A stretch of 56,589 nucleotides of DNA from the sequence record PZ445422.1; one strand, 5' to 3'. A program made the translations under genes and the position numbers. Below are positions 45,793 through 46,966 of this stretch, one piece after another (the first letter of the stretch is position 1; each line of letters begins with the position of its first letter). The DNA comes from a phage. The notes beneath the pieces are model-generated. The model ran no database searches, was not told the DNA's origin, and saw only the letters and a list, made by a program, of their open reading frames with translations.

Positions 45793-46966
45793 TTAGTTTA
45801 ACCACACTTCAACGATTAGCAGCAGCCAGTCGGAGGAGTCGGAGGAGTTGCCAGTTAAAGTATTTAAATCTGTAGATGAAGTTAAGCTAGTATAAGACTG
45901 TGCAAAGACCTGAAGATTAATTCTTGCATCTGCTAAAGTAATAGCGCCAGTTCCACCTCTATTGACAGGTAAAGGTAGATATCTACTATTAGAAGTATCA
46001 AAAGCTCCCCAAGATAATGTATTTTCTACAATAATTTTTGCCCGCTTATCAGGGGAGTATATTGCAGTTTCCGCTCCTGCCTGAGCTAAACGGTCTACTT
46101 GGATGTTTGTTCGAGCTGTGTTAATGTTAGTCAAATCTGAAAGGTTTTGCGCCTTTTTTAACGACCCTTCCGCTGCGGATTCAGCACGGTCTGCGGCAGC
46201 ACTAGCATCCTTTGCTTTTTGTGTGGCTATATTAGCTTTTTCAGTTGCTGTCGATGCGTGCTGACCCGCTGTGGTAGCACTTTGACCAGCCTGTGTAGCT
46301 TTTTCAGTTGCAGTGTTAGCAGATGTAGATGCTGCATCTTTTAGAGCTGTGACTTCTTTGACTGCATCATCTTTAATTTTTTTGTGTATCGGTTTTAATC
46401 TTGTTAACTTCGGTTACAGCGGAATTAGCTGTATTCGCTGAACCAGCAGCTCCAGCTTGTGCTTGTTTAGCTGCATTAGCGTTAGCCTTAGAATCGTTTT
46501 TATAAGTTAATGCATCTGAAGCAGACTGGGCAGCGGAAGCTTTACTATTTCGCGCATCTGTAGCGTCCGCTTGTGCCGCAGCAGCCGACCTTCCAGCTTG
46601 AAGCGCAAACTGCTCAGAGTTAGCAACAAGCTCTTTGACTTGTGCAATAACTTCTGGAGTTAATTCTTCCGGAGCCCAGCTAGTTAGATAAGAATTAAGC
46701 GATCCTTCCTTACTGTCCGCATAAATAGCAATCTCCCCAGCTTTATAAGGTTCAATGCCTTGCGGACCTATGATAACCTTATAATAGCCTGTTTGAACAG
46801 TAATGTTATAAGCACCTTGCGAATCTGTTTTAAAGATAGCTTCACTGCCTGTCAATACGGTAATGGTATTCCCTTTTGCCAAAAGAGCGACTGTAGCGTT
46901 GATAATTGGTTTGCCCAGTCCATCACGCAAAGTACCATATAAACGAGTTGCCATAATATCTCCCAC
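45793..46966 (-). CDS. tail fiber protein; reading frame broken at an A7 homopolymer
   Basis: track ORFs 46373..46966 and 45793..46134 plus my translation of 46135..46413 form one continuous fibre-like sequence if one A is removed from the run at 46377..46383. Confidence 0.5.

Follow-up and report, generated by a model that had tools for sequence, protein, structure and literature searches.

Laboratory lambda is without side tail fibres, for which the stf frameshift of lambda PaPa (Hendrix and Duda 1992) has been cited (PMC8594841, ref. 93). A fibre-less form has also been described for the Cronobacter/Escherichia phage CSP1, from which a spontaneous clear-plaque mutant, CSP1C, arises repeatedly on E. 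coli MG1655 (PMC13577005). CSP1C carries a 4,672-bp deletion flanked by the 14-bp repeat GTGCAACCGGAACA. TEM showed fibres on CSP1 and none on CSP1C, and complementation brought the fibres back; adsorption, latent period and burst size of CSP1C were unchanged (PMC13577005). The minimal set required for lysis suppression, seen as turbid plaques, was found to be the fibre gene together with the next two genes (PMC13577005).

The phages of the BASEL collection were isolated on K-12 MG1655 deltaRM, a host that has no O-antigen (PMC8594841). The BASEL authors propose that the lateral fibres of small siphoviruses bind O-antigen, and they consider T5-type fibres to be unneeded on O-antigen-less K-12 (PMC8594841). 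Here we describe the lateral fibre locus of one phage of this collection. The window, that is, the whole stretch of phage DNA that was analysed, is 56,589 nucleotides long, and its positions 45300..47400 match Escherichia phage GottfriedDienst (MZ501071) at 100%. GottfriedDienst is Bas21 of the BASEL collection, a coliphage and siphovirus of the genus Seuratvirus (Queuovirinae). The window is MZ501071 rotated and reverse-complemented, such that a window position equals 65581 minus the record position. All coordinates below are window positions.

On one side of the fibre locus are a J-like tail tip gene and, after it, a small lipoprotein gene on the opposite strand; on the other is a 122-aa gene annotated as 'putative pyrophosphatase'. 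Between these borders GenBank places three CDS, bas21_0022, bas21_0023 and bas21_0024 (Table 1). Comparison with intact relatives makes it highly probable that the locus is a non-functional, twice-hit remnant (pseudogene) of the Bas21 lateral tail fibre gene, in which case the annotation should treat bas21_0022 to bas21_0024 as pieces of one pseudogene.

Table 1. Coordinates of features at the lateral tail fibre locus of Bas21 (window positions)
Feature	Position	Strand	Description	Basis
Fibre remnant	45793..46954	-	whole lateral (side) tail fibre remnant, highly probable pseudogene	Greed alignment; Pfam and PHROG tail-fibre matches
5' fragment	46373..46954	-	193 codons and TAA; PF08400 and start of the Ala/Ser/Thr-rich shaft	translation, Pfam
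A7 homopolymer	46377..46383	-	plus-strand T7; one-base insertion relative to A6 of the intact allele	alignment gap against Greed
Former shaft codons	45851..46376	-	codons about 192-367 of the former fibre, no longer in the reading frame of the 5' fragment; two bases differ from Greed	
Deletion junction	45843..45861	-	left copy of the imperfect direct repeat	Greed alignment
Remainder of deleted gene	45816..45850	-	last 35 nt of the deleted 235-aa gene (phrog_9288), read in the wrong frame	PHROG; 98% identical to CSP1_021
Tail of downstream ORF	45793..45842	-	out of frame; 3' end of deleted gene and spacer, non-fibre	Greed alignment
bas21_0022			'lateral tail fiber protein', 193 aa	GenBank annotation
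bas21_0023	46227..46337	-	'hypothetical protein', 36 aa, third frame within the former fibre gene	GenBank and frame arithmetic
bas21_0024			'tail fiber protein', 113 aa	GenBank annotation
122-aa gene	45376..45744	-	downstream gene, kept; phrog_9157; right-hand locus border	GenBank, PHROG

The A7 run and the split reading frame

The upstream ORF of the locus ends in KIKTDTQKN-stop at 46373. At this point the minus strand reads ACC GAT ACA CAA AAA AAT TAA, encoding T D T Q K N stop, with the TAA at 46373..46375. The +1 frame stays open between 46413 and a stop at 45793, so the two frames overlap by 41 nt and the A7 run lies inside the overlap. Removal of one A from the run joins the frames into a single ORF, which has 386 aa if counted from the ATG at 46954 and 390 aa if counted from the GTG at 46966. 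A preliminary description of this DNA had placed the end of the ORF (TQKN-stop) at the A7 run and had predicted a fusion product of about 390 aa; the reading of the minus strand bears out the first statement, and the second agrees with the length counted from the GTG. Position 46954 is also the start given in GenBank, and it has a GGGAG Shine-Dalgarno sequence 7 nt upstream. Because the GTG, which is the choice of the ORF finder, sits within this Shine-Dalgarno sequence, we take the ATG to be the real start.

The downstream piece was also considered as a gene of its own. By eye, no Shine-Dalgarno sequence was seen near the TTG at 46134, which is simply the first start codon of the open frame. 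The 113-aa ORF that starts there was rejected as an independent gene, as it has no ribosome-binding site, lies in frame inside the fibre ORF of the relative Greed and ends in 18 residues of junk. The start of bas21_0023 is an ATGATG located just past the frameshift stop, and this CDS is most likely an artefact of gene calling that arose from the broken ORF.

Greed (KX534337) is the closest relative of Bas21. It carries A6 in place of A7 and has one continuous lateral tail fibre ORF of 973 aa (ANY29814). At the DNA level the two phages share 97% identity across the initial 1,558 nt of the query, with only two differences downstream of the run, and the repaired Bas21 frame across the junction of the two ORFs is identical to the intact Greed fibre. 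Since it restores the sequence of a fibre whose gene has A6, the frame split is not a chance arrangement of two ORFs. Similarly, P0001, a homologue that is more distant, has VDTQGIKDSAVTETTALKDAA at the position of the A-run, read through in a single frame. The continuous A6 ORF of Greed and the in-frame reading of P0001 indicate that the A7 arose by insertion of one base into a gene that had been continuous, the A7 count being that of the deposited consensus and the ancestral A6 state that of one close relative, Greed, plus distant in-frame homologues.

A protein-database search with the 235-aa shaft region returned one match, P0001, and missed the near-identical Greed fibre. The low-complexity Ala/Ser/Thr composition probably defeated the word index, and negative results on such sequences would then be unreliable. 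Exact flank patterns of the A-run (5-9 variable bases) gave no further examples in viral or metagenome contigs. Another assembly with the 193-aa product was also sought, and only the GenBank record carries it.

Across the window as a whole, runs of exactly seven A or T are strongly depleted, with 2 observed and 31.5 expected from dinucleotide shuffles; there is no A8, and runs of exactly six bases number 27 and those of exactly five, 114. The other A7 (32072..32078, plus strand) is read in frame, as WWKKRT, within a 660-aa ORF that resembles a helicase by eye. In addition, an Ala-rich shaft patch of ~125 nt (about 46476..46600, minus strand) differs from Greed at ~30 positions, between flanks that are 99-100% identical. 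Such a pattern points to recombination over a short stretch and agrees with the mosaicism of fibre genes. The phage CAjan matches Bas21 at 95.7% up to about this patch and is divergent beyond it.

The 2,663-bp deletion and what is left of the fibre

The alignment of Bas21 with Greed revealed a second lesion, which the preliminary description had missed. Collinearity ends at query position 1558 and is regained in Greed 2.66 kb later, the two aligned segments overlapping by 19 nt; 2,663 bp located between imperfect direct repeats of 19/20 nt are missing in Bas21. The repeat copies in Greed are ACTTTAACTGGCAACTCCT (left) and ACTTTAAACTGCCAACTCCT (right), and Bas21 has the left version followed by the right-hand flank, which places the crossover inside the exact 8-mer CAACTCCT (45843..45850). 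The deletion takes fibre codons 369-973, including those of the Peptidase_S74 intramolecular chaperone, the spacer, and the next gene except for its last 35 nt. The junction 8-mer and the 50 nt from 45842 down to 45793 supply the 18 out-of-frame residues and the stop that end the downstream ORF. The proposal of a split fibre gene thus stands, supported by the continuous A6 ORF of Greed, but the fused product would not be a complete fibre, because the downstream ORF is itself cut by the deletion. Even with A6 restored, the product would be a 386-aa stub comprising PF08400 and part of the shaft, lacking both the distal region and the S74 domain. Fibres of the Peptidase_S74 type use the S74 chaperone domain for folding.

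We compared the domain content of the two proteins using Pfam. In the Greed fibre, PF08400 spans residues 1-134 and Peptidase_S74 (intramolecular chaperone of endosialidase) residues 850-901, with a weak gp37_trimer match between them at 708-759. In Bas21, PF08400 ('prophage tail fibre N-terminal', tail attachment) covers residues 1-134, about 46553..46954, with E = 1.3e-25. The repaired Bas21 protein has PF08400 alone, apart from a CarboxypepD_reg match, below threshold, to the N-terminal residues already covered by PF08400. Over residues 1-92, where Bas21 and Greed are identical, the Greed fibre matches a 94-residue 'Tail fiber protein' chain of PDB 9e7m. Of the parts of a functional lateral tail fibre, Bas21 therefore has PF08400 and lacks the continuous shaft frame, the distal receptor-binding region and Peptidase_S74. 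The two phages are alike in the N-terminal domain and the shaft, whereas the A6 run, the S74 C-terminus and the downstream 235-aa gene are found in Greed alone. The 5' fragment is likely the only part of the remnant that is translated efficiently.

The flanks of the remnant contain further elements. The 122-aa 'putative pyrophosphatase' has no Pfam match and belongs to a PHROG of unknown function; its GenBank product name may be misleading, as the homologue in CSP1 is needed for lysis suppression (PMC13577005). On the other side, a 77-aa lipoprotein gene (phrog_12984; 47037..47270, plus strand) separates the J-like tail tip gene from the fibre gene. As a neighbour of receptor-recognition genes, it is a candidate for a superinfection-exclusion lipoprotein like T5 Llp or Cor. 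A hairpin at 47272..47299 (both strands), between the J-like gene and the lipoprotein gene, reads AATTAACCCCTC-GTTT-GAGGGGTTAATT in Bas21 and is the sole terminator-like hairpin in 45300..47400. Greed has a hairpin with the same stem and with the 4-nt loop reverse-complemented (AAAC against GTTT), a type of change expected of template switching inside a hairpin. Promoter and terminator scans of 45300..47400 gave counts at chance level, and a GC hairpin 3' of the remnant ORF (about 45763..45792) did not qualify as a terminator.

Origin of the remnant and alternative readings

The two lesions and the missing domains, like the parallel deletions in relatives described below, are seen directly in the genomes, and their signatures point to the events that may have produced them. 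The ancestral gene would have resembled that of Greed, encoding a 973-aa fibre with PF08400, an Ala/Ser/Thr-rich shaft, a distal receptor-binding part and Peptidase_S74. Judged by its signature, the change from A6 to A7 would be due to replication slippage, with translation stopping after residue 193. The loss of 2,663 bp would likewise be due to slipped-strand or illegitimate recombination between the short direct repeats. Either lesion alone would abolish a working fibre.

Bas21 uses LamB as its terminal receptor and reaches titres of 1e8-1e9 (BASEL supplementary tables, PMC8594841). Its efficiency of plating is ~1 on rfaC and rfaG mutants, and it forms no plaques on O16-restored K-12 (BASEL supplement, PMC8594841). 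Fibre-intact sister phages are likewise blocked by O16, so the host-range data are consistent with fibre loss and do not discriminate. We found no mention of a Bas21 fibre defect in the main text of either BASEL paper. Bas21 would remain viable without the fibre since lateral fibres are thought to bind O-antigen, which its K-12 host does not have, and infection would proceed through the J-like tail tip and LamB. We infer that Bas21 virions are without lateral fibres; the 193-aa stub may still be bound to their tails.

What favoured the loss is partly a matter of conjecture. By analogy with CSP1, loss of the fibre together with its 235-aa neighbour should abolish lysis suppression and give clear plaques, and clearer plaques would favour such mutants during plaque picking or in culture. 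The loss may predate isolation, because two lesions exceed what a few laboratory passages usually yield. The presence of two lesions in one gene suggests that selection had been relaxed for longer than a few passages.

Each of the three explanations offered in the preliminary description for the split frame, namely a sequencing error, phase-variable truncation and +1 recoding into two fibre isoforms, is at odds with part of the evidence. An error in the consensus, with a true A6 and a single truncated fibre ORF of 386 aa, is improbable. Homopolymers are the classic site of indel errors and the 193-aa product occurs in the GenBank record only, but the BASEL genomes were sequenced on an Illumina NextSeq 550 and assembled in Geneious, with a coverage of 314x for Bas21 (Table S5, PMC8594841), and at this depth a run of seven bases is rarely miscalled. 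An error at the run would moreover leave codons 369-973 deleted and the conclusion unchanged.

Given that the 193-aa fragment keeps a complete tail-attachment domain and its own ribosome-binding site, it might instead be active. The frameshift could have been selected after the deletion, against a misfolding 386-aa stub, with the fragment capping the sites on the tail where fibres dock. Alternatively, the A6/A7 difference could be a natural fibre switch in Greed-like Seuratviruses, with Bas21 locked in the off state. We give these possibilities together only a slender chance, and prefer the reading of the locus as an inert remnant.

A programmed event at the run, in which a +1 ribosomal frameshift or RNA polymerase slippage losing one A would produce 193-aa and 386-aa isoforms, is very unlikely. 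A-runs are slippery for both tRNA-Lys and RNA polymerase, the frames overlap at the run, and a small fraction of A6 transcripts is plausible. However, RNA polymerase in E. coli usually slips efficiently only on runs of ~9 or more, and relatives do not share the two-frame layout, since Greed has a single ORF with A6 and P0001 is in frame. Nor does a stimulatory RNA structure follow the run, as the fold of 46290..46395 has -13.3 kcal/mol, with z = -0.27 relative to shuffles; by eye, no Shine-Dalgarno-like stimulator was seen just upstream of it. The long isoform would, moreover, have neither the distal domains nor the S74 chaperone, and its last 18 residues would be junk. Recoding and phase variation both need a useful downstream product, and both are unsupported because the 2,663-bp deletion has put an end to it here.

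A reversible switch, in which A6/A7 toggling would turn fibre production on and off, is equally hard to credit: the tract length does differ between the close relatives Greed (A6) and Bas21 (A7), but a tract of 6-7 bases is short compared with known contingency loci, reversion to A6 could not restore the Bas21 fibre as codons 369-973 would still be missing, and relatives have lost the fibre by different, irreversible deletions and not at the A-run.

Parallel losses in relatives and comparison with known systems

In ~22 related Seuratvirus-like genomes, 2.8-5.1 kb separate the fibre start from the 122-aa gene; in Bas21 the distance is 1.2 kb, and in SHIN8 (PP627280; L003 3447..4055) it is 0.7 kb. 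SHIN8 has a truncated fibre of 202 aa with the 122-aa gene directly after it, and the junction has an 11-bp homology. Like Bas21, SHIN8 is a Seuratvirus whose fibre gene is cut by a deletion that reaches to just before the 122-aa gene. In contrast to Bas21, its breakpoint is at about fibre codon 136, it has no A-run frameshift, and its N-terminal region is ~80% identical. The phage KS_S4 (L008 9100..9310) keeps the fibre and is without the downstream 235-, 122-, 176-, 94- and 67-aa genes. In our own comparison, CSP1C (L006 4013..4286) is 100% identical to CSP1 up to the junction and 99.9% identical after it, with ~4.66-4.67 kb deleted at 14-bp repeats; 56 fibre codons are kept and four genes are lost wholly or in part. 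Judging from these genomes, the entire segment that separates the fibre gene from the leftward-transcribed genes seems to be dispensable in culture.

Three independent deletions in one genus indicate that this locus is readily lost on rough laboratory strains, which biases the picture of host recognition that collections give. Users of the BASEL collection should treat Bas21 as a Seuratvirus without lateral fibres, and as a natural fibre-minus control beside the fibre-bearing Bas22-Bas25. From the CSP1 work, Bas21 is also predicted to be without lysis suppression.

Among the known cases, CSP1C is the nearest homologous one; it is of the same genus as Bas21 and is altered at the same locus, where a deletion between short direct repeats has removed most of the fibre gene and its 235-aa neighbour. 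The 235-aa protein of Greed and the 122-aa protein of Bas21 are each 98% identical to their CSP1 counterparts (CSP1_021 and CSP1_022, respectively), whereas identity between the distal fibre parts of CSP1 and Greed drops to about 36-43%. Both CSP1C and Bas21 are viable on K-12, and the absence of fibres, which in Bas21 is deduced from the gene, was seen by TEM in CSP1C. The two differ in extent: in CSP1C the deletion extends across the 122-aa gene and into the 176-aa gene and leaves 56 fibre codons, whereas in Bas21 368 fibre codons and the 122-aa gene are retained and a frameshift is present as well.

The nearest precedent is the stf frameshift of lambda PaPa. Lambda PaPa resembles Bas21 in being a siphovirus propagated on K-12 in which a single-base frameshift splits the side fibre gene into two ORFs. 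It likewise stays fully infectious through the central tail tip and LamB, and its fibre has an N-terminus of the PF08400 type. In lambda PaPa the lesion is a one-base deletion, the rest of stf and tfa are intact, and repair gives working fibres (Ur-lambda). Bas21, unlike lambda PaPa, has a one-base insertion and a 2.7-kb deletion, and repair of the run cannot restore the fibre. The remnant in Bas21 thus calls for no new mechanism and would be an ordinary fibre pseudogene like these known cases.
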